A stretch of 36,559 nucleotides of DNA from a virus (taxonomy: Duplodnaviria > Heunggongvirae > Uroviricota > Caudoviricetes): positions 1-36,559 of the IMG/VR virus record IMGVR_UViG_2724679237_000007; one strand, given 5' to 3'. Positions 12,644 through 36,559 of the stretch are shown here, piece by piece. The stretch's first letter is position 1. Every line of letters begins with the position of its first letter. Under the pieces are notes generated by a model, which did not search any database, had not been told where the DNA came from, and worked only from the letters and a program-made list of their open reading frames with translations. The position numbers were made by a program, and so were the translations under genes.

Positions 12644-12679
12644 AGGTAAAAAAAAACTCCCAAAAACAAGGTAAATAGC

Positions 12680-18517: not shown

Positions 18518-18816
18518 CAGATTCGGATGACGAAGATGATTCGCGGCTTGCCGGGCAAGAACAGCGCCACCGTGAGCGAGAGCAGCGCGATACAGATGAT
18601 ATCCGGCAGGTGATGAGCACTGACGCCGGGCGGCGCGTTATCTGGTGGCTGCTGGAGCGCGGAAAGGTTTTTTCCACTACGTTCCACGCCGACCCGCACA
18701 TTGCAGCATTTAACGAGGGGCAGCGAAATCTGGCTCTGGCGATGTTCAGCCGTGTGATGGCGGCTAGTCCTGATAATTATTTACTTATGGCTGCAGAGGC
18801 CAGCAAAGAGGAGTAG
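18514..18816 (+). CDS. Hypothetical acidic protein (possible scaffold-associated)
   Basis: 100 aa, acidic N-terminus (DSDDEDD); translationally coupled between portal and scaffold. Confidence 0.45.
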   Translation: MTDSDDEDDSRLAGQEQRHREREQRDTDDIRQVMSTDAGRRVIWWLLERGKVFSTTFHADPHIAAFNEGQRNLALAMFSRVMAASPDNYLLMAAEASKEE

Positions 18817-19523: not shown

Positions 19524-19534
19524 GGAAATAACCA

Positions 19535-20524
19535 ATGGCGGTAAAAGGCATTAATGCGCTCACTCTGACCGACTGGGCGAAGCGAACCGATCCTAACGGC
19601 AAGATCGATAAGATCGTAGAGTTGCTGGCGCAGACCAACCCTATCCTGCAGGACATGATGTGGGTTGAGGGTAATCTGCCAACGGGGCACCGCACCACCG
19701 TACGTACCGGACTCCCGTCCACCACCTGGCGCATGCTCAACTACGGCGTTCAGCCCAGCAAATCCACCACAGTCCAGGTAACGGATGCGTGCGGGATGCT
19801 GGAAGCCTACGCGGAAGTTGACAAGGCGCTGGCTGACCTGAACGGCAACACCTCTGAGTTTCGACTCTCCGAAGATCGCGCGTTCCTGGAGGCGATGAAC
19901 CAGAACATGTCCGAAACGGTTTTTTACGGCGATACCAGTATCAACCCTGAGCGTTTTATGGGGCTGTCCGGTCGCTACAGCGATAAGGGTGCCGCAAACG
20001 GTAAAAACATCATCGACGCTGGCGGGGCGCAGACGGATAACGCGTCCATCTGGCTGATGTGCTGGGGCGAAAATACCGTCCACGGCATTTTCCCGAAAGG
20101 CTCAAAAGCGGGGCTGAATCACGAGGATTTAGGGCAGCAGACACTGATCGACGCCAACGGCGGTAAATACGAAGGTTACCGCACCCATTACAAGTGGGAT
20201 GCCGGGATGACACTGCGCGACTGGCGTTATGTGGTGCGCATCGCAAATCTGGATACCAGCGATCTGGCTGACGGCAGCGCCAGTGCGCCGGATATCTGTA
20301 AGCTGATGGCTAAGGCGTTGCATCGCTTGCCTAACCGCCAGATGGGTAAGTGTTCCTTCTACATGAACAAGGATATCGCGGAGTATCTGGATACCCAGGC
20401 AATGGAAAAGCCGTCATTGGGTATCAAGGTGAAAGAAACGGAAGGTGTCTTCTGGAACGATTTCCGTGGTGTTCCGATCCGTGAATGCGATGCGCTGTTG
20501 AATACCGAATCGCGCGTTCAGTAA
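19535..20524 (+). CDS. Major capsid protein
   Basis: 329 aa in the canonical position after the scaffold; strong GAGGAAA RBS. Confidence 0.75.
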   Translation: MAVKGINALTLTDWAKRTDPNGKIDKIVELLAQTNPILQDMMWVEGNLPTGHRTTVRTGLPSTTWRMLNYGVQPSKSTTVQVTDACGMLEAYAEVDKALADLNGNTSEFRLSEDRAFLEAMNQNMSETVFYGDTSINPERFMGLSGRYSDKGAANGKNIIDAGGAQTDNASIWLMCWGENTVHGIFPKGSKAGLNHEDLGQQTLIDANGGKYEGYRTHYKWDAGMTLRDWRYVVRIANLDTSDLADGSASAPDICKLMAKALHRLPNRQMGKCSFYMNKDIAEYLDTQAMEKPSLGIKVKETEGVFWNDFRGVPIRECDALLNTESRVQ

Positions 20525-20544
20525 ATCATAACCGGAGAAATAAC

Positions 20545-20985
20545 ATGATTATTGACAAGCAGTTATTGTTTTCTGAGGCGCAGGCCGTTACGGCTTCGAT
20601 TACATCAACTGACACCCTAGATTTAGGGCCGCTTGCTGGACCCCGGCGCGATATTGGTGTTGGCTACCCGTTAGAGTTATTCATCACAGCCGTCAAGACG
20701 GCGACCGCATCCGGCGCTGCAACGGTGCAGTTCTTCCTGGATACCGATACTGAATCTGATTTTCCGTCGGCAACCACTATTTTCCAGTCTACCCCTGTCC
20801 CGGTGGCTAAATTGGTACAGGGCTGGCGGATGAATATTCATGTGCCACCAGGCTGCGAGCGTTATTTATTGCTGCGTTATGTGGTCGCTACCGGGCCATT
20901 AACGGCAGGGGCCTTCACGGCTGGTATTAATCTGGCTGTAGATGCCAATACCCCGTATACCGACGGCCTGTCCCGCGCATCTTAA
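20545..20985 (+). CDS. Hypothetical virion protein
   Basis: 146 aa from the internal ATG at 20545 (GGAGAAA RBS). Confidence 0.45.
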   Translation: MIIDKQLLFSEAQAVTASITSTDTLDLGPLAGPRRDIGVGYPLELFITAVKTATASGAATVQFFLDTDTESDFPSATTIFQSTPVPVAKLVQGWRMNIHVPPGCERYLLLRYVVATGPLTAGAFTAGINLAVDANTPYTDGLSRAS

Positions 20986-20998
20986 GGAGTAGAGAAGA

Positions 20999-21319
20999 AT
21001 GTCCGAACCGAAATACCGGGTGCTGGAAAAATCGTTCATTGACGGCAAGCTGATTGAACCGAGGGAAGAGATCGTTTTTCTCGGCACTCCCGGCAGTAAG
21101 CTGGATCCGCTGAATGATGCGGCAAAAGCGATGAAAGAAGATGGAGCTGCCATCATCGCTCCCGTTCCTGAAGGCAATACCGAAGATAGCGAAGATGGTG
21201 ATCTGTCAAAACTTCGTGAAGAGTACGAATTGCTTTTTCAGGAGAAGCCGCGCCCCAGCACCAAAGCCGATACGCTGCGTAAAAAAATCGCCGATAAGCG
21301 AAAAGAACTTGGTGTGTAA
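20999..21319 (+). CDS. Hypothetical protein
   Basis: 106 aa charged protein with AGGAG RBS; followed by a strong terminator. Confidence 0.45.
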   Translation: MSEPKYRVLEKSFIDGKLIEPREEIVFLGTPGSKLDPLNDAAKAMKEDGAAIIAPVPEGNTEDSEDGDLSKLREEYELLFQEKPRPSTKADTLRKKIADKRKELGV

Positions 21320-21327
21320 ATCTGAAC

Positions 21328-21351
21328 AGGGCCGCAAGGCCCTTTCTTTTT
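21328..21351 (+). terminator. Rho-independent terminator
   Basis: AGGGCC-gcaa-GGCCCT followed by TTCTTTTT. Confidence 0.7.
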
Positions 21352-21367
21352 AGCTGGAGCGAATTTT

Positions 21368-21685
21368 ATGGAACTGATAAACCTGAAAACAGGTACTGAC
21401 AGCTATCAGGACGAAAAGGGTGAGACGCATACCCGCGATGATTATCCATGGGGGCTGAGTATCAGCCTGGATAATGAAACGCTGAATAAACTCGGTGCGG
21501 ATTTACCTGCTGTGGGGCAGGTGGTCACTATCTCTGCTAAGGCCATCGTTAAATCGACATCTGTACGGCAGGACAACGAAGAGGCATACCGACGCGCCGA
21601 ACTGCAGATAACTGATATGGCTATTGCCGGGGAGGATTCGCAGCCAACTAAATCTGCGGCGGATACGCTTTACGGGGGCGACTGA
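21368..21685 (+). CDS. Hypothetical protein
   Basis: 105 aa; overlaps the next gene start (ATGA). Confidence 0.45.
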   Translation: MELINLKTGTDSYQDEKGETHTRDDYPWGLSISLDNETLNKLGADLPAVGQVVTISAKAIVKSTSVRQDNEEAYRRAELQITDMAIAGEDSQPTKSAADTLYGGD

Positions 21686-22290
21686 TGGCCTCAGTTATTG
21701 AAATCTGCAACAACGCACTGAGCCGGATCGGCAACAACCGGACGATCAACAGTCTGGATGAGGCCAGCAAAGAAGCCGATTCCTGTAGCCTGCACTATGA
21801 CTCCTGCCTAGATACGGTGCTATCGGATTTTGACTGGAACTTTGCAACAAAGCGGGTGGCGCTGGCTGATACCAATACTCCGCCGCCAGACTGGCAATAT
21901 GCGTATCTGTACCCCACAGACTGTATGCGCATCACTGAAATTATGATGCCCGGCATGCGCAATCCTCCGTCGGTTGCGCGTATCCAGTTTTCTGTCGGGG
22001 CCGATGGTGATGGAACCAGCAAGCTGATTTATACGGATCAGGAGGATGCCTGGCTCAAATACGTCGGGCGGGTGACGGACGTCAATATGTTTGATGCAAT
22101 CTTCAGAAATGCGCTGGCGTGGCAGCTTGCGGCGGAAATTGCTATGCCGCTGACAGGCAGCGCAGATCTGGGCAATAACGCGCTAAAAATGTACAGCGGC
22201 GTTATTCTCACCGCTGGCGCTCATAGCATGAATGAATCGCAGGAACCGCCGCAGCTGGATTCTGAATTTACCATCGCGAGGTTGTCATAA
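21685..22290 (+). CDS. Tail tubular protein A-like (T7 gp11-like) protein
   Basis: 201 aa; size and position match T7 gp11; N-terminal region resembles gp11. Confidence 0.5.
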   Translation: MASVIEICNNALSRIGNNRTINSLDEASKEADSCSLHYDSCLDTVLSDFDWNFATKRVALADTNTPPPDWQYAYLYPTDCMRITEIMMPGMRNPPSVARIQFSVGADGDGTSKLIYTDQEDAWLKYVGRVTDVNMFDAIFRNALAWQLAAEIAMPLTGSADLGNNALKMYSGVILTAGAHSMNESQEPPQLDSEFTIARLS

Positions 22291-24773
22291 TGCCTTTTTC
22301 ATGGATTCAGCCGAGCTTTGCGGGGGGCGAGATTGGCCCGTCGCTATATGGCCGCATAGATATGGCAAAGTACCAGGTGGCGCTACGCAAGTGCGATAAT
22401 TTTATTGTGCGACAATATGGCGGGCTTGAGAATCGTCCGGGTACGCGATTTATTGCGCCAGCGCGATACGCGGATAAAAAATGCCGCCTGATCCCGTTTC
22501 AGTTTTCTACCGTGCAGACGTATGCGCTGGAGTTCGGCGATAAGTACATGCGGGTGTTTATGAATGGCGGGCAGGTGCTGAACAGTAACTGTAGCATCTA
22601 CCAGATATCGACGCCTTACGCAGAGGCCGACCTTTTTAAGCTGAAGTTTACCCAAAGTGCGGATGTGCTGACCGTCGTTCATCCATCATACCCGCCAAAA
22701 GAGTTACAGCGTTATTCCCATACCAACTGGCAACTGGTGGATGTGGTCACGAAGAACGGTCCGTTCGAGGATATCAACGTTGACGAATCCATCAAGGTTT
22801 ACGCCAGCGCCAGCACAGGAACAATCACACTAACAGCTACATCGGCGATTTTCGGTAGCGAACAGATAGGCAAGCTGTTTTATCTGGAGCAGCCGGCTGT
22901 TGATTCGGTGCCAGTGTGGGAAACCAGTAAATCAACGGATACGGATGATATTCGCCGCGCAGACAGCAACTATTACCGGGCGAACACCAGCGGAAAAACT
23001 GGCACGCTCAGGCCGTCGCATACTGAGGGTATGGCGTGGGATGGCTGGGGCGGTGATGGCGACGACGATACCGGGATACAGTGGGAATACCTGCACAGCG
23101 GATTTGGCATTGCTAAAATTACTGCTGTCGCCGGGAACGGACTCAGCGCCACCGCCAGCGTGGTTTCGTATATCCCGTCTCAGGTTGTCGGTTCAGGTAA
23201 TGCCAGTTTTAAGTGGGCGCGCTACGCATGGAACAGCGTAAACGGCTACCCCGGTACGGTAGTTTATTACCAGGAACGCCTGTACTTTGCGGCATCATCT
23301 GCATATCCGCAAACTATCTGGGCTAGCCGTACCGGGGATTATAAGGATTTTGGTAAATCAAATCCGACGCAGGACGACGACCGGATCACAAAAACCTACG
23401 CCGGGCGGCAAGTGAATGAAATCCGCCACCTGATTGACGTTGGTGGCTCGCTGGTAGTGCTCACCTCCGGCGGTGAGTTTGTGATTAAGGGCGATCAGAA
23501 CAGTGTACTTACGCCCTCTGCTTTCACGTTCAGCTCACAGGGGGCGAACGGTTGCAGTAATGCCCCGCCAATTGCGGTATCAAATATCGCGCTGTTTATC
23601 CAGGAAAAAGGCAGCGTGGTGCGCGACCTGGCGTACTCTTTTGATGTTGACGGATATCAGGGAACCGACCTAACTATCCTCGCCAATCACCTATTTGAAA
23701 AGCACAGCATTGTTGACTGGTCGTTTTCTATCGTGCCGTATTCCAGCGCGTTCTGTATCCGTGACGACGGCAAGCTGCTGGTGATGACCTATTTGCGCGA
23801 ACAGCAGGTTTTTGCCTGGGCTCCGCAGTCCGGTGACGGGAAATTCGAAAGCACCTGCAGTATCAGCGAGGGCAGCGAAGATGTCGTTTATTTTGTGGTT
23901 AACCGGACTATTAACGGGGCCAGCGTACGCTATATCGAGCGTCTCTCCAGCCGCCTGTTCAGCGATGATATGGATGCGTTTTTCGTTGACTGTGGGCTGA
24001 GCTACGACGGGCGAAATACCGATAAATCCCGGACGGTAACGATCAGCGGTGGAAGCGGAGAATGGGATTATTGTGAAAGCTATACCCTGAGCGTATCTGG
24101 CGCGTCGTATTTTGTCAGTACGGATGTTGGCGCGCAGATTCAGATACCCTATACCGGGACTGACCCGGGGGAAGGCGGTACCGAAGATATGGAGCTGCGC
24201 TGCGATATTATCAGCGTTACCAACGGCAATACGGTGACGGTACTGTGCAACCGCAATGTTCCTGCCGGGCTGCGGAATGTCGCCACCTCTGGCTGGCGGA
24301 TGGCGCGCCTGTCCTTTGGAGGGTTATCGCACCTCGAGGGGAAAACGGTCAATATCCTCTCGGATGCCAGTGTAGAGCCGCAAAAGGTTGTTTCCGGCGG
24401 CGTGGTGACACTCGAATCGCCGGGTGCGGTGGTGCATATCGGTTTACCCGTTACGGCAGAGCTTGAAACGCTGGATATCAATATCACCGGGCAGGAAACC
24501 CTGCTGGACAAAAAGCAGATCATTCCAGCCGTGACCATGTTGGTAAATTCCAGTCGTGGAATATGGGCGACGACGCCAGGCGGGAAATGGTACGAGTATC
24601 CACAGCGCGAATTTGAGTTTTATGATGATCCGGTGAATGACGCTACCGGGAAAGTTGAGGTAAAACTCGACAGCAACTGGGATAAAAACAGCCGGGTGAA
24701 AATCAGGCAAACTGATCCGCTGCCGTTGTCGGTACTGGCGATCATCCCATCGCTGACGGTGGGAGGTCGCTGA
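22290..24773 (+). CDS. Tail tubular protein B-like (T7 gp12-like) large tail protein
   Basis: 827 aa; size and position match T7 gp12 (794 aa); translationally coupled to flanking genes. Confidence 0.5.
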   Translation: MPFSWIQPSFAGGEIGPSLYGRIDMAKYQVALRKCDNFIVRQYGGLENRPGTRFIAPARYADKKCRLIPFQFSTVQTYALEFGDKYMRVFMNGGQVLNSNCSIYQISTPYAEADLFKLKFTQSADVLTVVHPSYPPKELQRYSHTNWQLVDVVTKNGPFEDINVDESIKVYASASTGTITLTATSAIFGSEQIGKLFYLEQPAVDSVPVWETSKSTDTDDIRRADSNYYRANTSGKTGTLRPSHTEGMAWDGWGGDGDDDTGIQWEYLHSGFGIAKITAVAGNGLSATASVVSYIPSQVVGSGNASFKWARYAWNSVNGYPGTVVYYQERLYFAASSAYPQTIWASRTGDYKDFGKSNPTQDDDRITKTYAGRQVNEIRHLIDVGGSLVVLTSGGEFVIKGDQNSVLTPSAFTFSSQGANGCSNAPPIAVSNIALFIQEKGSVVRDLAYSFDVDGYQGTDLTILANHLFEKHSIVDWSFSIVPYSSAFCIRDDGKLLVMTYLREQQVFAWAPQSGDGKFESTCSISEGSEDVVYFVVNRTINGASVRYIERLSSRLFSDDMDAFFVDCGLSYDGRNTDKSRTVTISGGSGEWDYCESYTLSVSGASYFVSTDVGAQIQIPYTGTDPGEGGTEDMELRCDIISVTNGNTVTVLCNRNVPAGLRNVATSGWRMARLSFGGLSHLEGKTVNILSDASVEPQKVVSGGVVTLESPGAVVHIGLPVTAELETLDINITGQETLLDKKQIIPAVTMLVNSSRGIWATTPGGKWYEYPQREFEFYDDPVNDATGKVEVKLDSNWDKNSRVKIRQTDPLPLSVLAIIPSLTVGGR

Positions 24774-25237
24774 TGCATGATGTGCAGATCGTTCCCGCCA
24801 CACGGGAGCATATTGTCGCCATCCTCCCTTACGTTCGCCAGGCAGACATTCTGGAGTTTCTTGCCGTAACCGGCCAGACGCCTGAGCAGGTGCTGGAGCT
24901 GGGATTGCGGGTATCAACGTTTGCATGCGCAGGACTGATTAACGGGCATGTCGTCACCATTTTTGGCGTTGCGCCAGCGTCCATGATTGGCGGTTGCGGT
25001 CTTCCGTGGCTGGTAAGTACCGACGCACTGGAGCAGTATCCGCGTACTTTCCTGCGCCAGTGTCGCCCGGTTGTTGATGTCTTTTTGTCTGTTTACCCGC
25101 GCCTTGAAAATTATGTCGATACCCGTAACCACGTTGCGATAGCCTGGCTGCGCTGGCTGGGATTCCGGCTTGAGGAGCCAGCGCCTTACGGCATGCTGGG
25201 GCTTCCATTTCACCGTTTTCATCTGGAGAGAAAATAA
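24773..25237 (+). CDS. Internal virion protein A-like small protein
   Basis: 154 aa; position and size parallel T7 gp13; C-terminal VAIAWLRWLGFRLE faintly GNAT-like. Confidence 0.4.
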   Translation: MHDVQIVPATREHIVAILPYVRQADILEFLAVTGQTPEQVLELGLRVSTFACAGLINGHVVTIFGVAPASMIGGCGLPWLVSTDALEQYPRTFLRQCRPVVDVFLSVYPRLENYVDTRNHVAIAWLRWLGFRLEEPAPYGMLGLPFHRFHLERK

Positions 25238-25782
25238 TGTGCTCAACTACTGCGCTGGCGGTCACGACGCTGGCCGCTTCCGGCGTGTCTGCTTATAACC
25301 AATATAAGTCAGGGCAATATCAGGCTGATGTTGCTAATCAGAATGCGAAACTGGCTGACGCACAGGCCAATGATGCCATCAACCGGGGTAATGCCGATGC
25401 AGAGCAAAAGCGCCGCGAGATGCGCCAGCGCCAGGGACAGCAAGCGGCAGCACTGGGGGCGACAGGTGGGGAGATGAGTAGCGGCTCCTCGCTGGATATT
25501 TTCGGTGATACCACGCAATACGGCACACTGGATGCGTTGACCACGGTGAACAATGCCCAGCGTGAAGCGTATGGCTATCAGGTTCAGGCAGCTAACTCTC
25601 GCGCACAGGCGGATGCTGCTGAGCAGCAGGGAACCGTGGGTGCATTCTCCACGTTACTGACTGCGCCGCTTAAAGCGTACGGTGTATATAACTCTGGCGG
25701 TGGTAGCTGGAATCCATTCACGCAGAGTAAAGCTGCACCCCTTAGCGCCGCCAAAGGCACCAGATTACCAGGGGGGTTATAA
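25237..25782 (+). CDS. Internal virion protein B-like (Gln/Ala-rich)
   Basis: 181 aa, low-complexity, hydrophobic N-terminus; parallels T7 gp14. Confidence 0.45.
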   Translation: MCSTTALAVTTLAASGVSAYNQYKSGQYQADVANQNAKLADAQANDAINRGNADAEQKRREMRQRQGQQAAALGATGGEMSSGSSLDIFGDTTQYGTLDALTTVNNAQREAYGYQVQAANSRAQADAAEQQGTVGAFSTLLTAPLKAYGVYNSGGGSWNPFTQSKAAPLSAAKGTRLPGGL

Positions 25783-28277
25783 TGCCAGTTGTACCTACAG
25801 TCGCCGGGCGACAGGTTCAGAGCCACGGCGTATCGACGGGTGGTTTTAATGCGTATTCCGGCGCAGGAATTAGCGATGTACTGGCCGATGCTGCGGGTAA
25901 ATACGCTGGTGTATTTGCGGAGGCCAAACAGCGGGCAAATGTCGCTCTGGCGCAGGATGCATCGTTGCAGCTCAGCCAGCGCGCCAGCGTGATGATGAAT
26001 GACCCAGAAAAAGGCCTGTTAAACCTGCAGGGCAAAAACGCTATCGGCAAAGGTCAGGAGTACACGGCTATGTTTGACAGCGCCGCCGGGGAGATTGCCG
26101 GCACGCTGCCGGATGATGTCGCCCGCAATATGTTCCTGCAGCATGCGCAACAGCAGCGTATCCAGTTCACCACGCAGGCAGGACGGCATGAAATCGGCCA
26201 GATTAACGCGTATGAGGAAGGGCAATTCCAGGCGACGCTGGCGAATAACGCGCAGAACGCGGCGGCGCTACACGGCGATAATGCCGGATATATTTCGGCC
26301 AATCAGCAGACGTTCCAGCAGATAGAACAGTTTGGCGCAGCACGCGGCTGGAGTGATGAGCAGATCACCGCAAAAAAAATGGAGTTTAAAGAAAAAACCG
26401 CCATGGCTACTGCAGCCAATGCTATAGGCGCTAACTATATGGCCGTTCGCATGCAAAATGGGGAACCGGCTGATAATTTTGGTTCTCAGCGGGTGTCTGG
26501 CTCTGGCAGCGCAGAACCGTGTGGTATCTGGAACAATAACCCTGGAAATTTGCGGACATCAAAAAATCCCTGGGACGGGCAGACGGGTGATGACGGCGAG
26601 TTCGTTACATTCGCCACTCCGGAACACGGGATACGTGCTTTGGGTAAAAACCTGCTGTCTTACCAGCGGCAGGGATTTGTAACACCCAGGCAGATTATTT
26701 CCCGCTGGGCTCCTCCCGAAGATGGCAACGATACGGAGGCTTATATTGAAAAGGTATCATCGGCGCTGGGTGTATCAGACAATGAAAAGCTAAACTTGTC
26801 GAACATCAAAACACTTTCAACGGTGAGTAAAGCCATTATGGCTACGGAGAATAACGGAGAGGTTGGCTATTCCGACCAACAAATCAGTACCGGGTTACAG
26901 GCTGCCCTAGGCGCAACGCAGCTACCTGCATCACCTGACGCGCCAAAACGCTATACCGGCTCCGCCTGGTTTGACGCTCTGAATACCGCAGACCAGGCGA
27001 AAGTGATGCGTCAGTTAGATGCACTGGATGAGCAGTCGCGGGTTAAGTATCGCTCGGAGCTGACCGGACGTGTGAAAGATGCCAGCGCGGCGTATACGCG
27101 CGGCGTCGATTTTCCCAATCCGCCATCGCAGCAGGATTTTATCCGGGCATATGGTTACAATGATGGTTTGGTGCAGCACGCTGATTTCGAAAGGCTGCAA
27201 CAGCTTGGATCGGATATCGGCGTGGTAAAATCCCTGCCTGTTGCTTCTCAACTGGCACTGCTGGAAGAAAGGAAACCAATCCCAGGTGACGGTTATGCGG
27301 CTGGTGTCTCCCGGTATGAGTCGCTGGCGCAGGCAATTCAGCATGTGAATGCCGTTCGGCATGATGATCCTGTCCGTTATGCCCAGGAGCAAAATATTGC
27401 GTCGCCGCTGGATATCAGATCCCCGCAGTCGTTAACCCGCGGTCTGGAGCAGCGCGCTGATATGGCTCCTGATCTGGTGGTTCAGTACCAGACGCCGCTG
27501 GCGGTATTCAGCAAGGAAGAAGCCGTCCAGCTTACTTCCCTGCTGAAAGATGCTCCGTCAGGCCAGAAGGTGGCCTATCTTGATGCGATGCGTCAGTCAA
27601 TTAAAGATCCCGTCGTTTATAAAGCCGCGTTGCAGCAGGTGACATCCGGAAGCCCTTCATTTGCTGTCGCAGGGCTGATAATGGATAAGCCCGGTAATGT
27701 GGTGACGGAACGAAATACCTTTTCTGACAATATCTCCGTTACACCACAGGACGCAGCGCAAATCATTCTTGAAGGCAATCCGGCACGCAAAGGCGCTGAT
27801 GGTGCAAAGGGGATAGCCATGCCTAAGGACAGCGATATGCGGACGGCGTTTTCTGAGTACGTAGGTGATGCGTTCGCCGGTGATACCCAGGGCGCTGAAA
27901 GTGCATACCAGGTCGCGCTGGATTACTACGCGGGGAAAAGCCAACGCGCCGGGGATATATCTGGCAGCTATAACGACAGGCTATTTAAAGAGGCAATGTC
28001 GGTAGCCACTGGAGGTATCTACGATTACCAGGGTATGGGTAAAATCATGTTGCCGTGGGGTATGAGTCCCGATCGGTTTGATCGCGAGATAAGCAAGGCA
28101 TGGATGTCTCAGGTGGTAGATAAGGGCGTCAGGGTTGACCCGATTAACTACTCTCTGCAGAGCTTCGGCGACAGCCGTTATCTTGTACGCTACGGGACAG
28201 GCTATCTTATCGATAATGATGGAAATCCTGTCGTGCTGGACATAACCGAAAATAAAATCCGGGACATTCCGAAATGA
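25782..28277 (+). CDS. Internal virion (ejection) protein C-like, with a conserved Cys/His central domain
   Basis: 831 aa; parallels T7 gp15; central region aa ~235-330 (PCGIWNNNPGNL...ATPEHGIRALG) looks like a globular, possibly enzymatic domain. Confidence 0.5.
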   Translation: MPVVPTVAGRQVQSHGVSTGGFNAYSGAGISDVLADAAGKYAGVFAEAKQRANVALAQDASLQLSQRASVMMNDPEKGLLNLQGKNAIGKGQEYTAMFDSAAGEIAGTLPDDVARNMFLQHAQQQRIQFTTQAGRHEIGQINAYEEGQFQATLANNAQNAAALHGDNAGYISANQQTFQQIEQFGAARGWSDEQITAKKMEFKEKTAMATAANAIGANYMAVRMQNGEPADNFGSQRVSGSGSAEPCGIWNNNPGNLRTSKNPWDGQTGDDGEFVTFATPEHGIRALGKNLLSYQRQGFVTPRQIISRWAPPEDGNDTEAYIEKVSSALGVSDNEKLNLSNIKTLSTVSKAIMATENNGEVGYSDQQISTGLQAALGATQLPASPDAPKRYTGSAWFDALNTADQAKVMRQLDALDEQSRVKYRSELTGRVKDASAAYTRGVDFPNPPSQQDFIRAYGYNDGLVQHADFERLQQLGSDIGVVKSLPVASQLALLEERKPIPGDGYAAGVSRYESLAQAIQHVNAVRHDDPVRYAQEQNIASPLDIRSPQSLTRGLEQRADMAPDLVVQYQTPLAVFSKEEAVQLTSLLKDAPSGQKVAYLDAMRQSIKDPVVYKAALQQVTSGSPSFAVAGLIMDKPGNVVTERNTFSDNISVTPQDAAQIILEGNPARKGADGAKGIAMPKDSDMRTAFSEYVGDAFAGDTQGAESAYQVALDYYAGKSQRAGDISGSYNDRLFKEAMSVATGGIYDYQGMGKIMLPWGMSPDRFDREISKAWMSQVVDKGVRVDPINYSLQSFGDSRYLVRYGTGYLIDNDGNPVVLDITENKIRDIPK

Positions 28278-30079
28278 GTTATTTTGGCCTTGATCCAACA
28301 TCAGAGCGAAACCAGCTTTCGCTGGCCGTCGAAAACCCGGTTCTCCCTCAGGAAGCCGGGTTTTTTGATAACGTGCTGTTGTCTCCCCTTGAAGGTCTGG
28401 TTAATGGCGCTATCAATAAGCCCGCGCTCAGTCTGGCGATTGGTCTTGATGATACTCTGTCTCCATATGCCAGTATGCTGGATGATGCCGTTGGCACCAG
28501 CACAGAACAGTGGTTTCATGACCAAGTCGCCGTTGAATTAGCCAGCGTAAGAGCCGCGACACCCAACCCTGCAACCACAGGTACCGCCGGGCAGATACTG
28601 AACAATATGTTTGATATGGGGGGGCAATTCGCTATTGGCTCCCGTCTCGGTGGTCCGGTGGCTGGCGCGGTGACGGTGAGCACGATGCAGGGCGGCGCGG
28701 ATTATGCCGAATCGCGTGCGCGGGGGGTCGATCCGGCTACCGCCCTGCAAAAAGCTACGGTGACAGGGCTGACGGCGGGCGCGGGTACGTTAATCCCCGC
28801 GTCTATTGGACTGCGCTCCGTGGGGGCTGCGTCCGGCGTTCTGGAGAAAGCAATGGCGTTTGGCGGAGACGTTGCCTATTCCGCCGGCAGCAACATGGCG
28901 ATGGGAATGGCACAGCGCGGCTTTACGCACGATATTCTCTCCGGTGCGGGCTATGAGGAAATGGCGGGGCAGTATCATGCACTGGACAGCCAGGCGCTGG
29001 CGGTTGATGCGGTGCTGGGCGTTGCCTTTGGCGGTGCCGGACATTTCCTGCATACAGGCACTGGCGATAGAGCACCAGCGCCGGAAGTCAGCCAGGTGGA
29101 TATTGATGCTGCGTTAACCACTAACTCAGCGCTGCATGTGGAAACCGACGCTGCGCCGGGTATCCCGGCAGACCCAATTAGCCGGACGGAACATGTTGCC
29201 TCCGTCAATAAGGCGCTGGCGGATATCAGCGCCGGACGTCCTGTCGATGTTTCCGGGATACTCAGCCATGCGGATTTTATGCCCAAAGATATGAATGACT
29301 TTATCCGCGATGTGTCGGTGCAGGCCAGTGAGTTTTATCCTGATCTTCCACTTTTTTACCTGGACGACGGTGCAGCCATAACCGGAAAGACAGTCAGCGA
29401 TCATATCGCGCTGCTTCAGCCCGACGCCGCAGCGCTAATGGATCGTGGCACCCGCGAATCCCTTACAGGGGAAATCCACCGTAGCGAAAACCGCCTGGAG
29501 ACATTATCCGGCGAGCTTACAGCAGTGAAAAACGAGCCTCCGAAAGGCAGCGGAAAGGCGCTTGCACAGGCCCGCGCTGCGCACGTTGACAGGGTGAAAT
29601 CCCTGAACCGGGATATTGATGCGCTGAAAAGCGATATTGCCGCAAAAAAAACAGCGCTGGCCGATCACTCTAAGGGTGGAAAGAATTTTGAGGCCAAAGC
29701 TGATATATCCCGCCTGCGTCAGGGGATTGTACCTGAGCGCCTGAAACAGTCTGTTACCCGTCAGAGTGCGGAGGAACTGGGACAGAACATAGATATCCCC
29801 CCAAAATCCGCACCAGTTGAACCGGAAGTTTCGCCCGGCAAGACCAGCGCGGAAAAAAGTGCTGATGAAAGTGCGGCGACAGTGGACGGTGATGCGCAAC
29901 TGGCAAGCCATGCTTTGCGTACCAATCCAGACATGGTGATCCAGACGGAGGATGCTGGCGGGAATATGGTGGAGGTCAGGGCAGCGGATGTTATGGCCGA
30001 TGCGGATGCGGTGATCAGGCAGGCAGAGCAGGACGCAAGCCTGTTTGATGCCGCTGTAGCGTGTTTTCTTGGGGGATGA
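28274..30079 (+). CDS. Internal virion (ejection) protein
   Basis: 601 aa, Ala/Gly-rich, coiled-coil C-terminal segment; with the next ORF comparable to T7 gp16. Confidence 0.5.
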   Translation: MSYFGLDPTSERNQLSLAVENPVLPQEAGFFDNVLLSPLEGLVNGAINKPALSLAIGLDDTLSPYASMLDDAVGTSTEQWFHDQVAVELASVRAATPNPATTGTAGQILNNMFDMGGQFAIGSRLGGPVAGAVTVSTMQGGADYAESRARGVDPATALQKATVTGLTAGAGTLIPASIGLRSVGAASGVLEKAMAFGGDVAYSAGSNMAMGMAQRGFTHDILSGAGYEEMAGQYHALDSQALAVDAVLGVAFGGAGHFLHTGTGDRAPAPEVSQVDIDAALTTNSALHVETDAAPGIPADPISRTEHVASVNKALADISAGRPVDVSGILSHADFMPKDMNDFIRDVSVQASEFYPDLPLFYLDDGAAITGKTVSDHIALLQPDAAALMDRGTRESLTGEIHRSENRLETLSGELTAVKNEPPKGSGKALAQARAAHVDRVKSLNRDIDALKSDIAAKKTALADHSKGGKNFEAKADISRLRQGIVPERLKQSVTRQSAEELGQNIDIPPKSAPVEPEVSPGKTSAEKSADESAATVDGDAQLASHALRTNPDMVIQTEDAGGNMVEVRAADVMADADAVIRQAEQDASLFDAAVACFLGG

Positions 30080-32580
30080 TAATGCGAAGTGAATGTATTA
30101 AGGCAGTGTCTAAAGCGGCGGGGCGCACGCTTAACCAGGCGGAAATCAAAGGTATTGAAGAGAGAATTACCCGCAACATGCGCGCACTGGCGCGTGATGA
30201 CCGGATGGCGTGGCAGTCCAAATCAGAAGCCACACGGCTGACAGAAGCAGCAAAAGCCGCATCCGATGAACTGGTGGCCGAAGCAAAACTGAAGAAGCGC
30301 CGCGTGGCGCTGCAAATAGTGGCGCACGATATCATCAACCAGCACATTACCGGCTATAGGGGAAAGGATGGCGCAATCGGCGCACTGAATCGGGTGCTGG
30401 CGTTCAGTGCCGACGGTAAATCAAATTTCTTCTCTGTGGAGACGCGCGGCAAGGCGACACGCGACCAGGCGTTGGCACAACTGCAGGATTTGTTCGACGC
30501 CAGCGACCCGAAAATATTCGGGTTGTTTGAGAATAAACAGGGCGTTCGTGACATCGTGTTTGAGATTTTCGGTCAGGACACTGGCAATGCGGCGGCGAAG
30601 AAAGGGGCCAAAGCCTGGCTGGATACCGCCGAATCCCTGCGCAGTCGCTTTAACGACGCGGACGGCGATGTTGGAAAACTGGAGGACTGGAACCTGCCAC
30701 AGCACCATTCCCAGAATAAAGTGGCAAAAGCAGGTGAAGCAAAATGGGTGTCCGATATCGCAGGCAAACTGAACCGGAGCAAATACGTTAACCCGGACGG
30801 CAGTCTGATGAATGATGTGGAGCTGCAGGCGTTTTTGACTGAGGCGTATAAAACCATCTCTACTGGTGGCGTTAACAAGATAAAACCAGGAACGGTAGCC
30901 GGTGGCGGCGCGAGAGCGAACCGTGGTAACGAATCCAGGCAGATCCACTTTAAGGATGCGCAGTCTTACCTGGGTTACCAGCAGGCCTACGGCGAGCGTA
31001 ATTTCTGGCGGGTTATTGAGGGGCATGTTAGTGGCGTCAGCCAGGATATCGCACTGGTCGAAACCTTCGGCCCTAACCCGGATCACACCTTTAAATACTT
31101 CTTGGACAAGACTTATAAAGAAACCGTTGAGGTGACTCCAACGGATGCAGGGAAAATCGAAAAAAGCCGGATCAACACCGAAAATCTGTACGACTTTGTG
31201 GCGGGTAAAACGCTGCCGGTGGCGAACAGGCACATCGCGGAAACAGCCGATACGCTGCGAAATTTGCTGGTGGCCAGCAAACTGGGGTCTGCGGTGATCA
31301 CCTCCCTGACCGACTGGGGGATGATGGGCATAACTGCGCGGGTAAACAATCTGCCGATGCTGAAGCTGGCGCGCAACATGATTTCCACGCTGAACCCTGC
31401 CAATAAAGCAGATCTGCGGATGGCTCGACGTGCAGGACTGGCGATGGAGTCATTACTTGGCTCAGTTAACCGCTGGGGTGGCGATAACCTTGGGCAGTCA
31501 TGGTCGTCAAAAATGGCGTCCACGGTGATCCGCGCCTCCGGGTTAACGGCTCTGTCGGATGCCGGAAAACGCGCCTACGGCGTCACAATGATGAGCGCTA
31601 TCGGGCAACTGACGAAAGACCACGCGGCGATGTCTGCGCTCGACCCTGTGGATAACCGGATGCTGCTGTCAAAAGGCATCACCGATCGTGACTGGGCAAC
31701 CTGGAAGCTGGCACAACAGGAGGACTGGGGAAACGGCAATAACACCATGCTGACGCCTGAAAGTATCATGCGTATTCCCGACGCTAAACTGCAAAGCCTT
31801 GGCGTTTCTGAACGTATTCGCTCCGAAGCCGCCCGTAAGTTGCTTGGCGTGGTGCTGGAAGAAGTGGATATGGCGGTGGTGACGCCGGGTATCCGAGACC
31901 GCGCGCGGCTGATGGATAACATCCAGCGCGGAACGGCAAAGGGGGAGTTGGTGCGCAGCTTCTTTCTGTTCAAATCATTTCCGATTGCGATGGTCGCCAG
32001 GCACTGGTCGCGCGGCTTCAGTATGCCGACGGCGGGCGGAAAAGCAGCATATATCGCATCGACTATTGCCGCGACGACGGTGCTTGGCGCAATCTCTATG
32101 CAACTGAATAATGTCATTTCCGGGCGTAATCCGCAGGATATGAGCGAAGGGCGGTTCTGGCTGGCGGCGATGTTAAAAGGTGGCGCTCTGGGGCTGTACG
32201 GCGATTTCCTTTTCAGCGACCAGACGCAGGCGGGGCGTGGCATTATTGCGTCACTGATGGGGCCAATGGTGGGGATTGGCGAGGAAACGATCGGGCTGAC
32301 ACAGGGCAACCTGCTGGAGGCGATGCAGGGCGAAGATATGGACTTTGGTGCGGAGGCGCTGAAATTGTTCAAGGGCGTCACGCCATTTACCAACCTTTGG
32401 TATACAAAGGCCGCTACTGATCATCTTATTTTTAATAAACTGCAGGAGTATTTTTCGCCTGGCTATCTGCAGAAAATGGAAAGCAGATCACAAAGTAAGT
32501 ACGGATCTACCTACTGGTGGCGGGCTAATGATGTCCTGCCTGAACAGGCTCCGGATTTAGGTGCTGCCTGGAATCCCTGA
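30061..32580 (+). CDS. Internal virion (ejection / DNA-transfer) protein
   Basis: 839 aa; last large gene before the tailspike. Confidence 0.5.
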   Translation: MFSWGMIMRSECIKAVSKAAGRTLNQAEIKGIEERITRNMRALARDDRMAWQSKSEATRLTEAAKAASDELVAEAKLKKRRVALQIVAHDIINQHITGYRGKDGAIGALNRVLAFSADGKSNFFSVETRGKATRDQALAQLQDLFDASDPKIFGLFENKQGVRDIVFEIFGQDTGNAAAKKGAKAWLDTAESLRSRFNDADGDVGKLEDWNLPQHHSQNKVAKAGEAKWVSDIAGKLNRSKYVNPDGSLMNDVELQAFLTEAYKTISTGGVNKIKPGTVAGGGARANRGNESRQIHFKDAQSYLGYQQAYGERNFWRVIEGHVSGVSQDIALVETFGPNPDHTFKYFLDKTYKETVEVTPTDAGKIEKSRINTENLYDFVAGKTLPVANRHIAETADTLRNLLVASKLGSAVITSLTDWGMMGITARVNNLPMLKLARNMISTLNPANKADLRMARRAGLAMESLLGSVNRWGGDNLGQSWSSKMASTVIRASGLTALSDAGKRAYGVTMMSAIGQLTKDHAAMSALDPVDNRMLLSKGITDRDWATWKLAQQEDWGNGNNTMLTPESIMRIPDAKLQSLGVSERIRSEAARKLLGVVLEEVDMAVVTPGIRDRARLMDNIQRGTAKGELVRSFFLFKSFPIAMVARHWSRGFSMPTAGGKAAYIASTIAATTVLGAISMQLNNVISGRNPQDMSEGRFWLAAMLKGGALGLYGDFLFSDQTQAGRGIIASLMGPMVGIGEETIGLTQGNLLEAMQGEDMDFGAEALKLFKGVTPFTNLWYTKAATDHLIFNKLQEYFSPGYLQKMESRSQSKYGSTYWWRANDVLPEQAPDLGAAWNP

Positions 32581-32859
32581 TTATTAACCCGCTTTAATTT
32601 ATTGCCGACTGAAAACTACGTCCTGTGGGCGTGGTCATCAACAGGCTTTGGCTCTGCCTTATTGTCTTTGGATTTAAATTTACAGAATAGGCAGAGACTT
32701 CTTTTTAAGTTTTTTTAGTACGCCCCTTTGGGGCGAAACCAATGCCGCCTTCTTAGAAGGCGGATTTTTACTTCTCCTGCATTTAGCACAATTTTAATTG
32801 CCACCAACTACCGCCCGCCATTCTGGCGCTGGCGGCGCTTTGTCATAAAGAGAGACGCA

Positions 32860-35466
32860 ATGACAGTATCATCCGAAGTAAACCACAATGATTACCAAGG
32901 TAACGGGACGACTACCGTTTTTCCGTACCAGTTTCGTATCTTCAAAAAAACTGACCTGGTAGTAACCACCTCTGATCTTAATGACACTCTGACTACGCTG
33001 CGCCTGGATACTGATTATACAGTAACGGGGGCTGGTGGGTACAACGGCGGGACGGTTGTTCTTCCGTCACCACTGTCTTCTGGCTGGAAAATATCCGTGG
33101 CCCGCGTTCTTTCGATTACGCAGGAAACCGATCTGCGCAACCAGGGTAAATTTTTTGCAGAAGTGCATGAGAACGCATTCGATAAACTGACAATGCTGAT
33201 TCAGCAAGGACTGCGCTGGATTGGCCTGGCATTGTGCAAGCCGTCAACTATTGCTAATTATTATGATGCACAGGGTAATTATATCCGCAACCTGCATGAT
33301 CCGGTACAGCCACAGGACGTGGCCACGAAGAACTATGTGGATAATACAGTCGCTACGTCTACTGCTGGCTGGCATGCTGGTGATGAAGTGCTTGACCAGA
33401 AAATAGATGCAAACTTTGCTCACACGCTACGGGTTCCTGAAAGCAGCATTAATATGCTGGGGAGTGTATCAGATAGAGCAAATAAGCTGCTTGCGTTTAA
33501 CAGTAGCGGCCAGCCGATTTCTGTATTGCCGGAAAGCGGAAGTGCTACGGATGTGATGATTGAACTGGCTGCGGATGATGGCGCATCTAAAATTGGTGGT
33601 GCATTCTACGCCGATATCAGGGCCTACAACGCTGGCGGAAATCAAATCAAATGTCTGGGACGTACAAATATTTTTGACGGTGCAGATGGTGTGTTTATTC
33701 TTGACCCCTCTGATGTTGTATCACAGGATAACGACGGAACAGTTCTTGTAGATACAAATGGCGGTCGTTGGAAAAGGGTGTTTGATGGTCCGTTGAATGG
33801 GTTATGGTTTGGGATGGACAGGGGGGGGGCAAAAAGTTCCGGGGATGCTTTTAATAAAATATTGTCTGTTTCTGGAACTTTTGGGCAAATATTTATCCCT
33901 GAAGGGGTTTATTTATTGCCAGGTGGACACGATGTTCAAGAAGGGCAAAATATTTTATTTGACAATGTAACTTTAAAATCAGATGGAAATGCTGCAACAA
34001 CTAGTTTAATTAATATTAACGCTGATGATGTTTCAATTGGTGGCAGCTTGATAATTGATGGGGAAGTGAGAGATCCAGGAGAGAACCCTCCACGCATTGC
34101 TATTGGGCTAAGAGTTGGAGAGCAAAGACAAATTGAACGCTTCAATTGCGCCGGGGTTAAATCTTACGGTGTCGTGTATGGTGTTTTTATTACAGGCGCG
34201 AAAGATTCAACAATAAAAAATTGTCTGTCATACCGGAACTCAGACGGTTTTAGGTTAGCTTCCGTAACTTCAGGAGTTGCAAATTCATTCGGATGCGATA
34301 ATGTCAGGATAATTGATTGCATCTCCTTGGAAAACGGCATGCCATATATGCCTGTTACAGGAACAGGATCGACCGGGGGATATGCTGGATTTAAAGTTAC
34401 TGACATACCAATTTCTGATATATATTTCATAAATTGCATTGCTCGTGGTAACTGTGGGTTTGGTTTTAATATTCATGGCCATCCGTTCACTTCAATACCA
34501 AGTGGGTTTGAAATGAAAGGTTTGCATTTCATAAACTGCATATCAGATGGTAATAACATACCAGAATTTAATCTACCATCTGGATTTGTTACTGGAGCTG
34601 GAAATTGTAGTGGTTTCTATATTGGAGCGGTTGGTGTAGCAATCAAAAATGTATTTATTGATGGGTGCACTATCAAAGGACAATCTGGAGAAGCCATATA
34701 CTTCAGGGCTTTAAATGATAGCGGTTCTAATTTGAATCTAATTGAAAACATATTAGTTTCAAATTGCAGGATTGAAGGTGCTCCGAGATCACTAAATAGC
34801 AGCGTCAGAACTTCTAACTCAGCTCTTTATTTAACAGGCACGAGAAACTTGCTCTCTCAATCAAATGTTATCACTGGAGTTGAGTATCTTTATGATTTTG
34901 TTTATTATATTAATAACTCTAGGAGTGGAGTTAAGATTAAAGATGATCAGTATGACACCTCTCCTAATTTAATTTACGCTAAATCTTCAAAATTAGGAGG
35001 TGTTGTTGGGCGTATTGATATATCTGGTATTCAAGCAAGAAAGGGTGGGAAATTAAATAGTGCAACAGCCAATGTAATGATTAGGGTTGTCGATTTTGAG
35101 GAGATAATAATAGAAGGCAATAGTATCAATGATGTATCAGAAACACAATCATCTACTTTGGTAAATGCGATATTGCAACAAAATACAACTACTGATAGTA
35201 AATCAATCAAGATAATCAATAATTCATTTTCATGTGCAAATTCTAGTGTTCGAATTGGGGCACCAATAGAGATTAATTCAATAGGTGGATCAAAACTATT
35301 TAGTGGTAACACTATAACGCATTCAATAGTTGGTATTTCAGGGAACAACACTGAAAACGCAATAATCATTGCGAATCATTTTGATGCCGGAACAGTAGCT
35401 ACAAAAATATTAAATTTCCCAGCAAGCACAATTAAAAAAGCAAACATTGGACTTCCTGACAGTTAA
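32860..35466 (+). CDS. Tailspike / tail fibre with a conserved N-terminal particle-binding domain and a beta-helix (depolymerase-like) C-terminal domain
   Basis: Start at ATG 32860 (AAAGAGAGA RBS). N-terminus MTVSSEVNHNDYQGNGTTTVFPYQFRIFKKTDLVV...NYVDN is the widespread enterobacterial podovirus spike anchor; the C-terminal ~560 aa has repetitive Gly/Asn-rich beta-helix character and markedly lower GC. Confidence 0.8.
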   Translation: MTVSSEVNHNDYQGNGTTTVFPYQFRIFKKTDLVVTTSDLNDTLTTLRLDTDYTVTGAGGYNGGTVVLPSPLSSGWKISVARVLSITQETDLRNQGKFFAEVHENAFDKLTMLIQQGLRWIGLALCKPSTIANYYDAQGNYIRNLHDPVQPQDVATKNYVDNTVATSTAGWHAGDEVLDQKIDANFAHTLRVPESSINMLGSVSDRANKLLAFNSSGQPISVLPESGSATDVMIELAADDGASKIGGAFYADIRAYNAGGNQIKCLGRTNIFDGADGVFILDPSDVVSQDNDGTVLVDTNGGRWKRVFDGPLNGLWFGMDRGGAKSSGDAFNKILSVSGTFGQIFIPEGVYLLPGGHDVQEGQNILFDNVTLKSDGNAATTSLININADDVSIGGSLIIDGEVRDPGENPPRIAIGLRVGEQRQIERFNCAGVKSYGVVYGVFITGAKDSTIKNCLSYRNSDGFRLASVTSGVANSFGCDNVRIIDCISLENGMPYMPVTGTGSTGGYAGFKVTDIPISDIYFINCIARGNCGFGFNIHGHPFTSIPSGFEMKGLHFINCISDGNNIPEFNLPSGFVTGAGNCSGFYIGAVGVAIKNVFIDGCTIKGQSGEAIYFRALNDSGSNLNLIENILVSNCRIEGAPRSLNSSVRTSNSALYLTGTRNLLSQSNVITGVEYLYDFVYYINNSRSGVKIKDDQYDTSPNLIYAKSSKLGGVVGRIDISGIQARKGGKLNSATANVMIRVVDFEEIIIEGNSINDVSETQSSTLVNAILQQNTTTDSKSIKIINNSFSCANSSVRIGAPIEINSIGGSKLFSGNTITHSIVGISGNNTENAIIIANHFDAGTVATKILNFPASTIKKANIGLPDS
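33821..33829 (+). repeat. G9 homopolymer inside the tailspike ORF
   Basis: ggatggacaGGGGGGGGGcaaaaag, coding DRGGAK; lies at the GC-composition junction of the gene. Confidence 0.9.
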
Positions 35467-35473
35467 GTTACTA

Positions 35474-35524
35474 CAAGCCCCACTCACACAACGAATTAGT
35501 GGGTGGGGCTTGTACTTATTTTTT
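35474..35524. terminator. Bidirectional terminator between convergent tailspike and acyltransferase genes
   Basis: CAAGCCCCACTCAC-acaacgaatta-GTGGGTGGGGCTTG followed by tacttaTTTTTT; overlaps the acyltransferase stop. Confidence 0.6.
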
Positions 35525-36559
35525 AACTTTCGATAATAACCTTGCTAAAAGTAATGGGATTGCGATTGCAGAAAATGGATATAATAATTGGGTGTAAAAA
35601 GTATGGTAATGAACTAGAGTTTTAGTATTTCTCATGTCCCATAATCCAAATAACGAAAAAATCATGTCGAGGAATACAAATATACATAAATGATATGACA
35701 TTATTCCTCGCGAATACTTTCCTGCATCCTTTAAAAAAGTTGATAAATAAGTTCCATTAAATACAGAGGAAACAAAAAAAATTAGTAGTATGCATAGTAG
35801 AGCCATAATGGTTGTAACAACAAATCCTGATGGATATGCACTCCATGACATTATCATTGGTTTTGCTAGGCCAGATAAATATAATGATAAAACCAAGATA
35901 AATAAAATTAAAGCGATAATTTTATTTTTAAAATGTAAGATAAATGAATTGATGCAGCACCCGATCAGCATAAACATGGTGGCATATAGAACTTGAGACG
36001 TTAAGTTATATATCTGTTCACCTGTGATTTTATATATATCGGCCATGATGGTTGTAGATACGTATCCAAAACATATTGATATTGCAATTATTGTAATTTT
36101 TTGTGTTTTAGTATCTTTTATTTTTAATGACAATGAAATAATTATAGTTGATATAATGTTTGACAATAGGTATGCAAAAAGAAACCATCCAACTAAAAAC
36201 AATTCATTGTTATGGAAGTTGTTTTTGAATATTGATATTATTGTTTCAATGGGGTGTTCTGAAAATGGTAACCCAAACCCTATTCCATATATCTTAGATA
36301 TGCCAACGGAAACCATGCCGATTATTAAATACGTAACAATAAAATACATGATTATTTTTGAAAGTGTTTTTTTTATGGTTTTGAATGGGGTGATTCCATC
36401 AATAAAAAAACCACCCACAAAAAAGAATAAAGGCATATGATAAAAGTAAGGTTTGGTAATACCAACTAATATCCCCCAACTATGGCCGATAACCACAGCG
36501 ATAATCCCAATTCCTTTTACAATATACAAAGTGTCACTTTGCTCTTTAGTCAGTGTCAC
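35516..36559 (-). CDS. Acyltransferase family 3 integral membrane protein (O-antigen/polysaccharide acetyltransferase-like); N-terminus at or just beyond the window edge
   Basis: 347 aa, about 10 predicted TM segments; N-terminal VKGIGIIAVVIGHS matches the acyltransferase-3 signature; very low GC (roughly 28%); convergent with the tailspike. Confidence 0.75.
   Translation of the reverse strand: MTLTKEQSDTLYIVKGIGIIAVVIGHSWGILVGITKPYFYHMPLFFFVGGFFIDGITPFKTIKKTLSKIIMYFIVTYLIIGMVSVGISKIYGIGFGLPFSEHPIETIISIFKNNFHNNELFLVGWFLFAYLLSNIISTIIISLSLKIKDTKTQKITIIAISICFGYVSTTIMADIYKITGEQIYNLTSQVLYATMFMLIGCCINSFILHFKNKIIALILFILVLSLYLSGLAKPMIMSWSAYPSGFVVTTIMALLCILLIFFVSSVFNGTYLSTFLKDAGKYSRGIMSYHLCIFVFLDMIFSLFGLWDMRNTKTLVHYHTFYTQLLYPFSAIAIPLLLARLLSKVKK

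Follow-up and report, generated by a model that had tools for sequence, protein, structure and literature searches.

The window analyzed here is the whole of a 36,559-nucleotide (nt) stretch of viral DNA (IMG/VR record IMGVR_UViG_2724679237_000007, positions 1 to 36,559). It is a complete-looking epsilon15/phiV10-like (Uetakevirus-like) prophage of Escherichia albertii, and its right 18.3 kb (18274-36559) is 100% identical to contig BBVU01000003 of GCA_001514885.1. The prophage genes encode an integrase, a CI-like repressor, a primase-helicase, a family A DNA polymerase, a Q-like antiterminator, lysis functions, terminase, portal, capsid, internal virion proteins, and a tailspike. This report concerns a run of nine G residues (G9) within the tailspike gene, the product of which (868 amino acids, aa) is identical to WP_059244421.1 from E. 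albertii. The start of the gene was placed at the ATG at 32860 (MTVSSEV...) and not at the TTG at 32728 given in a mechanical list of open reading frames (ORFs), because every homolog begins with MTVS(S/T)E. The features of the gene that bear on the G9 run are as follows, where GC3 is the GC content at third codon positions.

32860-35466, plus strand: tailspike gene, 868 aa
32860-33576, plus strand: N-terminal particle-binding and neck module, aa 1 to ∼239, epsilon15/phiV10-like, GC3 0.47
33577-33819, plus strand: small beta domain preceding the beta-helix, aa ∼240-320, ending ...GGRWKRVFDGPLNGLWFGMD, GC3 0.35
33821-33829, plus strand: G9 homopolymer, codons AGG GGG GGG GCA (R321, G322, G323, A324), with G8 in one natural relative
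33832-35466, plus strand: predicted right-handed parallel beta-helix receptor-binding/depolymerase domain, aa 325-868, GC 0.36, GC3 0.25
33832-33882, plus strand: predicted RNA/DNA hairpin beginning 3 nt past the tract, 16-bp stem with nine perfect pairs
33852-33854, plus strand: TAA stop in the frame entered by G10 (1-nt insertion) or by a -1 ribosomal shift, 331-aa product not seen in public data
33916-33918, plus strand: in-frame TTG (codon 353), used by gene callers as the start of the 516-aa C-terminal fragment of the G8 allele (P0123)
33968-33970, plus strand: stop reached after a 1-nt deletion (G8), 369-aa product (323 native and 46 out-of-frame residues) observed as P0122

The nine G residues, flanked by A (33820) and C (33830), lie in frame inside the tailspike reading frame, as the initial annotation had reported. 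This run is the only one of at least 8 G or C in the 36.5-kb window, the next longest being one G7. Composition models predict 0.18-0.26 runs of nine or more G per window, and a single G9 is therefore not significant from composition alone. Other measures do make it unusual. Runs of six G or six C are well below expectation (∼7 G6 runs expected with Markov model parameters, three G6 and one C6 observed). On the basis of the prophage's own codon usage, the probability that Arg-Gly-Gly is encoded as AGG GGG GGG is 0.0046. The structural genes have six more sites at which a synonymous choice of codons would permit at least nine G, and GGC or GGT interrupts the run at all six. Homologous spike genes also lack such a run (see below). 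Four further assemblies of the same lineage carry the identical tract, as does a second lineage, GCA_039862125.1, which rules out an assembly error in the window. Slipped-strand mispairing is established for G/C runs of at least 8. In E. coli, the indel rate varies with run length, with 8-bp G·C runs being outliers in comparison to the whole genome (PMC8510543).

The computed translations of both slippage products, 369 aa for G8 and 331 aa for G10, lack the beta-helix, which bears out the earlier expectation that a shift of one nucleotide in either direction would truncate the spike before this domain. The G8 form exists in nature. The 90%-identity cluster that contains the spike has four members, corresponding to the full-length protein of the window, a full-length Q363K variant, a 369-aa protein, and a 516-aa protein, with the two fragments found on two contigs each. 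The contig with the shortened tract, Logan SRR24155066_736 (L014; 43,107 bp), was reached through a neighboring 601-aa gene and reads TGGACA-G8-CAAAAAG; its 369-aa product contains ...GMDRGGQKVPGMLL... and reads ...GMDRGGQKVPGMLLIKY..., the exact translation of the G8 allele. Comparison of L014 to the window identified six differences that are shared with the G9-containing GCA_039862125.1, whereas two single-nucleotide polymorphisms (SNPs) and the deletion of one G are private to L014. Because L014 shares these six SNPs with a G9 sister, G8 is the derived state. The other genes in the right 19 kb of the G8 prophage are all intact. Thus, at the level of assemblies and not of reads, the tract differs in length in the manner of an ON/OFF pair, with G9 in the window and five assemblies representing two lineages and G8 in SRR24155066.

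The G8 form might instead be a sequencing or assembly error and the tract a stable chance homopolymer, with no real polymorphism. Poly-G runs are error-prone on several sequencing platforms, G8 is known solely from Logan assemblies, a Proteus homolog on a different Logan contig also has a homopolymer frameshift (described below), and with 0.18-0.26 G9 runs expected per window the tract itself could be a product of chance. Against this explanation, the one-G deletion is the sole indel among 10 differences in 19.3 kb, and in the 18.3 kb compared, L014 has the correct, unchanged length at each of 33 further homopolymer runs of 6-8 nt, including four of 8 nt. The 33 include the longer runs elsewhere in the prophage, A8 at 26372, 29644, and 35774, T8 at 36367, and G7 at 28618, which are the same in the window, L012, and L014. 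The one other 9-nt homopolymer of the window is an A9 at 12648-12656; this gap has the primase-helicase gene on one side and, on the other, a 75-aa ORF that precedes the Q-like antiterminator gene. Moreover, three other Logan assemblies and two NCBI assemblies have G9, showing that the assembler does not systematically shorten the run, the 369-aa and 516-aa products each occur on two contigs, and L014 is a distinct lineage with its own SNPs. A generic homopolymer artifact is therefore unlikely, given the unchanged runs and the G9 calls in the other Logan assemblies, and we assign the absence of a real polymorphism a low probability. We conclude that slippage occurred in nature at least once.

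To place the tract in the protein, we compared the sequence to characterized domains and examined an AlphaFold2 model. The N-terminal module is 60-70% identical to many enterobacterial prophage spikes and matches solved T7-like fiber/spike adaptor domains; it also matches the Dpo31/Dpo36 tail fibers (1e-29) and phrog_1640. The small beta domain is common to spikes with several different N-termini. Relatives of the beta-helix domain are confined to ∼8 protein clusters among 5.8 billion, with identities of 37-53%. The model has a mean predicted local distance difference test (pLDDT) score of 82, with values above 90 for residues 250-860, and shows in order the small beta domain (∼247-306), WFG at 316-318, a loop with residues 321-323, a capping helix at 328-338, and a long right-handed beta-helix. 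Its Foldseek matches are phage depolymerase tailspikes (K64-1 S2-4, CBA120 TSP2, AM24, K1 lyase, and HK620). The gene is thus predicted to encode a tailspike with an N-terminal virion-binding module and a beta-helix depolymerase domain, in agreement with the low-GC beta-helix originally proposed for the C-terminal part. According to the model, the G9 run encodes a surface loop that links the small beta domain with the helix capping the beta-helix, which places the tract at the junction to the receptor-binding domain, again as first described. The tract probably encodes the variable loop in the conserved FGA-x-GDG-type entry motif of such beta-helices.

The claim that base composition changes at this place was upheld by a maximum-likelihood analysis, in which the single GC change-point fell at 33849, 20 nt downstream of the tract, whether the gene alone or positions 30082-36559 were used. 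The support interval was 33829-33855 and widened to 33633-33855 when the nine G residues were masked. GC3 declines stepwise, from 0.47 (aa 1-236) to 0.35 (aa 236-316) to 0.25 (aa 324-868). The further claim of a recombination seam at the tract is not supported as stated, the seam lying there only approximately. Among ∼120 homologs, 59 local alignment ends were located at residues 240-259 and 20 at residues 310-329, defining a main module boundary among relatives at ∼246-250 and a second one at ∼317-322; the second lies beside the tract and the main one does not. The receptor-binding module, including the small beta domain (from approximately residue 240), is found fused to epsilon15-like, P22-like (PF09008), and PF18668 N-termini, and in Proteus phage PM 116 it is joined from approximately residue 305. 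The segment 240-320 is closest (69%) to that of P0004, a spike with an unrelated beta-helix, whereas the relatives that share the receptor-binding domain reach 58%. A megablast search with the spike gene found no match in 50,697 phage records and two 90-nt matches only in 5,426 E. coli genomes, so no DNA-level relative was usable for mapping a breakpoint, and the same searches of phage records and E. coli genomes yielded no near-identical donor for either flank. Together, the composition step and the alignment ends support a mosaic junction that probably lies at or near the tract, though not one pinned to it. As a separate observation, this rare receptor-binding domain occurs joined to at least four unrelated virion-attachment modules, in podovirus- and siphovirus-type contexts, in E. 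albertii and Proteus; examples are P0131, P0133, and P0135 (P22-like N-terminus), P0134 on contig L116 (PF18668 N-terminus, lambda-like tail genes), and P0136 (Proteus phage PM 116).

To examine conservation of the tract, we drew on 20 bacterial genomes and 80 IMG/VR contigs, which contributed 92 unique tailspike homologs (210 kb). None of the 92 genes contains a G/C run of at least 9; the longest are one G8 and three G7, none of which is at the position of the tract, and the sites of these runs in the four family members are unrelated to one another. Likewise, neither Gly-Gly nor a homopolymer was found at the tract site in eight relatives of the receptor-binding domain. The closest local sequence, in P0134, is WFGMDRNGVLSS, encoded by AGA AAT GGC GTC, and the others have WFGAIGDG, WFGIIGNNG, and similar sequences. 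Other tract lengths were equally absent from public data. The products predicted for G6, G7, G10, G11, and G12 have no exact match in a collection of 15 billion proteins, in which only the G9 and G8 products exist; an exact look-up of the C-terminal fragment with the sequence of the window lineage gave no match; and scanning the JGI metagenomes and IMG/VR for the tract flanks, with the number of G residues between them left variable, gave no match. On the SNP tree of the sample (∼8 contigs), the length variation amounts to one deletion. A split spike does not require such a tract. The Proteus homolog mentioned above (P0129/P0127) is divided into 447 and 389 aa in one Logan contig, and its truncated C-terminus is reproduced exactly when the A6 run in GCAAAAAAT of the intact gene on L036 (L036:5276-5365) is shortened to A5, an independent homopolymer frameshift within this family of genes. 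Frameshift-split prophage spikes therefore occur in public assemblies without any special tract.

These data bear on whether the tract is an evolved contingency locus, in which selection would maintain G9 as a reversible ON/OFF (bet-hedging) switch of the tailspike. The tract exceeds the usual length threshold for hypermutability, it is in frame and exactly at the entry to the receptor-binding domain, it is built from unlikely codons (P = 0.0046), and natural G9 and G8 alleles exist in sister lineages. In addition, the prophage encodes its own family A DNA polymerase, and slippage during lytic replication might far exceed that of the host chromosome. Precedents are available in the polyG tracts of Campylobacter phages, as cited in PMC10877375, and in the repeat-mediated switches of phages T2 and T4 (Gomez et al. 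2025, bioRxiv 10.1101/2025.10.21.683753). Against selection for switching, the variation consists of one event in one direction with neither G10 nor any other length in public data, the tract is absent from 92 of 92 family members and from 8 of 8 receptor-binding-domain relatives, and the Proteus A6 frameshift illustrates that such splits arise without selection. Repeats are also depleted in tail-fiber genes generally, those of at least 6 nt being under-represented 0.77-fold in coliphage infection/tail-fiber genes (bioRxiv 10.1101/2025.10.21.683753). Finally, this phage has a single spike, and the OFF state would give non-adsorbing progeny with no fallback receptor-binding protein, unlike the situation in Campylobacter. 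The annotation of the tract as a possible slipped-strand switch is thus sustained as far as slippage is concerned, by the split gene of SRR24155066_736, but the term switch is unjustified, since the OFF state has no evident benefit for a single-spike phage and no homolog carries a homopolymer at the site. We regard an evolved contingency locus as improbable.

The hairpin that follows the tract raises another possibility. Its minimum free energy is -16.5 kcal/mol (z -3.93), none of 200 shuffled sequences was equally stable, and no other 55-nt fold across the low-GC 1.6 kb of this gene is as stable. Unusual structure is confined to the 55-nt hairpin; taken as a whole, the 119 nt surrounding the tract give a z of -0.74. 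No counterpart was found at the homologous place in four relatives, all of which also lack the tract, and no Rfam family was identified anywhere in the window. The sequence G GGG GGG (33822-33828) is formally a slippery heptamer of the type X XXY YYZ in the zero frame. The heptamer and hairpin could therefore be read as a recoding cassette that drives -1 ribosomal frameshifting or polymerase slippage, yielding a minor 331-aa anchor-only isoform from G9 and rescuing the exact full-length spike from G8. The zero-frame heptamer, the strength of the adjacent fold (33832-33882), and its absence from relatives that are without the tract agree with this reading, as does the consideration that translation of G8, if shifted by -1, would again give the native sequence exactly. 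In contrast, the spacer is 3 nt and not the 5-9 nt usual for frameshift stimulators, the hairpin boundaries were chosen after the fold had been seen, and the -1 frame of the majority G9 allele stops at 33852-33854 after nine codons (eight new residues), leaving no plausible functional extension and nothing conserved. Known slippage sites in enterobacteria are A/T runs, and to our knowledge G-runs are not efficient sites of frameshifting or transcriptional slippage in these bacteria. Recoding of this kind is thus very unlikely. A combined scheme, in which the tract and hairpin serve as an expression switch for the sole tailspike, with DNA slippage toggling between G9 (ON) and G8 (OFF or leaky) and hairpin-aided -1 frameshifting leaking some native spike from the latter, is also very doubtful; if true, it would amount to a graded, heritable, and reversible control of infectivity that is not described for enterobacterial temperate phages. 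A weak 12-nt direct repeat, GGGCAAA(A/T)..., at 33827, 33883, and 33943 was considered and set aside as probably due to chance or to similar Gly-Gln codons in copies 2 and 3; copy 1, at the tract, has another reading frame (GGG GCA AAA).

On balance, we consider the G9 run to be probably a non-adaptive frameshift hotspot, specific to its lineage and situated where the protein enters the receptor-binding domain, near a composition seam, and we judge it most likely a liability and not an evolved reversible switch. In the mechanism that we propose, the nascent or template strand would misalign by one G during DNA replication, and the resulting G8 or G10 would shift the frame so that translation ends 46 or 8 codons, respectively, past the last native residue. 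The truncated product should retain the virion-attachment part and lack the receptor-binding/depolymerase domain, and a prophage in the OFF state should yield particles unable to adsorb. Selection on the late genes of a prophage is not continuous, and such a hotspot may be tolerated there or may have arisen too recently for purging. Several points weigh against this interpretation. Three rare codons in succession preserve a tract that one synonymous change would destroy, and this preservation could mean selection for the tract. The hairpin located 3 nt after the tract and absent from relatives is not explained by pure accident. The G8 call comes from public assemblies and not from reads. Lastly, the sampled alleles diverged very recently (7-10 SNPs per 18-19 kb), and the absence of purging therefore says little either way.

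If the tract is only a hotspot, which we think more likely, its practical consequence is that one G would lead annotation pipelines to call the spike of some E. albertii genomes a pseudogene or a pair of genes, and the tract would mark the first place of inactivation in this prophage family. High-frequency switching would instead make the tract an early example, among temperate enterobacterial phages, of a contingency locus located in a receptor-binding protein, with a bearing on prophage silencing versus infectivity and on whether the phage contingency loci of T-even and Campylobacter phages extend to Escherichia lysogens.

The surroundings of the tailspike gene contain additional features of interest. 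The low-GC right end of the prophage comprises the beta-helix domain together with one further gene, recognized by a domain match and convergent to the spike gene.

35516-36559, minus strand: Acyl_transf_3 gene, 347 aa, GC 0.25-0.33

This gene likely encodes an O-antigen acyltransferase that would function in lysogenic conversion. A similar arrangement is present in L116, a lambda-like prophage with a related receptor-binding domain, where an Acyl_transf_3 gene is located at L116:5308-6234. The possibility that beta-helix and acyltransferase travel as one cassette was rejected, as the acyltransferases of L116 and the window are without detectable similarity and no phage match was found; judging from these sequences, the pairing of spike and acyltransferase seems to have arisen repeatedly and not via one cassette. 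On the other side of the spike gene, a GC-rich 8-bp hairpin with T-runs on both sides (32745-32763), terminator-like on both strands, occupies the 280-nt gap between the gene for an 832-aa virion protein and the tailspike start, and on account of this hairpin the tailspike may form a separate transcription unit.

Two observations concern the early region. A 253-aa protein encoded on the minus strand at 4822-5583 has a TIR-type domain (PF10137, CAP12-PCTIR_TIR) and shows a full-length match to the PADLOC candidate defense family PDC-S35 (E 4.6e-108). The protein is likely the product of a prophage-borne anti-phage gene. In assembly DRR017175, the 349-aa DNA cytosine methyltransferase of the window (2720-3769) is replaced by a different 290-aa gene with no Pfam match (L121:1467-2339). 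Because the late region is identical and these genes differ, early-region cassettes have been exchanged between otherwise identical prophages. Short contigs of run SRR34912239 (L007, L123, and L125) are pieces of the prophage described here and encode the acyltransferase, primase, and portal at 100% protein identity; the retrieved fragments lie outside the tract, and the run appears to be a complex or low-coverage sample.

Several known systems share features with this tract. Hypermutable polyG tracts are described for Campylobacter Fletchervirus phages (Sorensen et al. 2021, Cell Rep 35:109214, as cited in PMC10877375). As in the present case, those are G homopolymers in host-recognition genes where slippage shifts the frame and turns the product off. 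The Fletchervirus genomes reportedly have several tracts each that are conserved among related phages, and variation within populations is said to have been demonstrated experimentally along with a host-range phenotype. In contrast, the present phage is a temperate, single-spike podophage of enterobacteria that has one tract, confined to one lineage, for which we find one natural variant. In the lytic phages T2 and T4, the contingency loci (agt and rIIA) consist of runs of 6-9 A, and their reversion has been measured (Gomez, Barrick, and Waters, bioRxiv 10.1101/2025.10.21.683753). They resemble the present tract in that a homopolymer within a coding sequence is a frameshift hotspot giving null alleles, whereas here the run is of G and the gene is essential for adsorption. 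The polyG/polyC loci of bacteria (Neisseria, Haemophilus, Campylobacter, and Helicobacter) share with this tract an in-frame G/C run of at least 8 and undergo ON/OFF changes via slipped-strand mispairing. Bacterial contingency tracts are conserved across strains, vary bidirectionally within clones at 1e-4 to 1e-2, and affect non-essential genes for surface variation; Escherichia is mismatch-repair proficient.

A partial parallel exists to lambda G/GT-type -1 frameshifting, in which a slippery run is also followed by a stem-loop in a tail-related gene. The lambda G/GT shift lengthens its product and has been conserved among phages; in the common allele here, by contrast, the shifted frame terminates immediately, and no part of the arrangement is conserved. 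The closest relatives in overall design are the epsilon15 and phiV10 (Uetakevirus) spikes, which have an N-terminal module 52-62% identical to that of the window and exchangeable beta-helix domains, and phiV10 also has a convergent acyltransferase gene after the spike (an O-antigen acetyltransferase in phiV10, Acyl_transf_3 here). The window spike differs in its beta-helix, which is not related to the epsilon15 and phiV10 domains and has Proteus phage PM 116 (36%) as its nearest characterized relative, and none of the epsilon15, phiV10, and PM 116 spikes has a long homopolymer.

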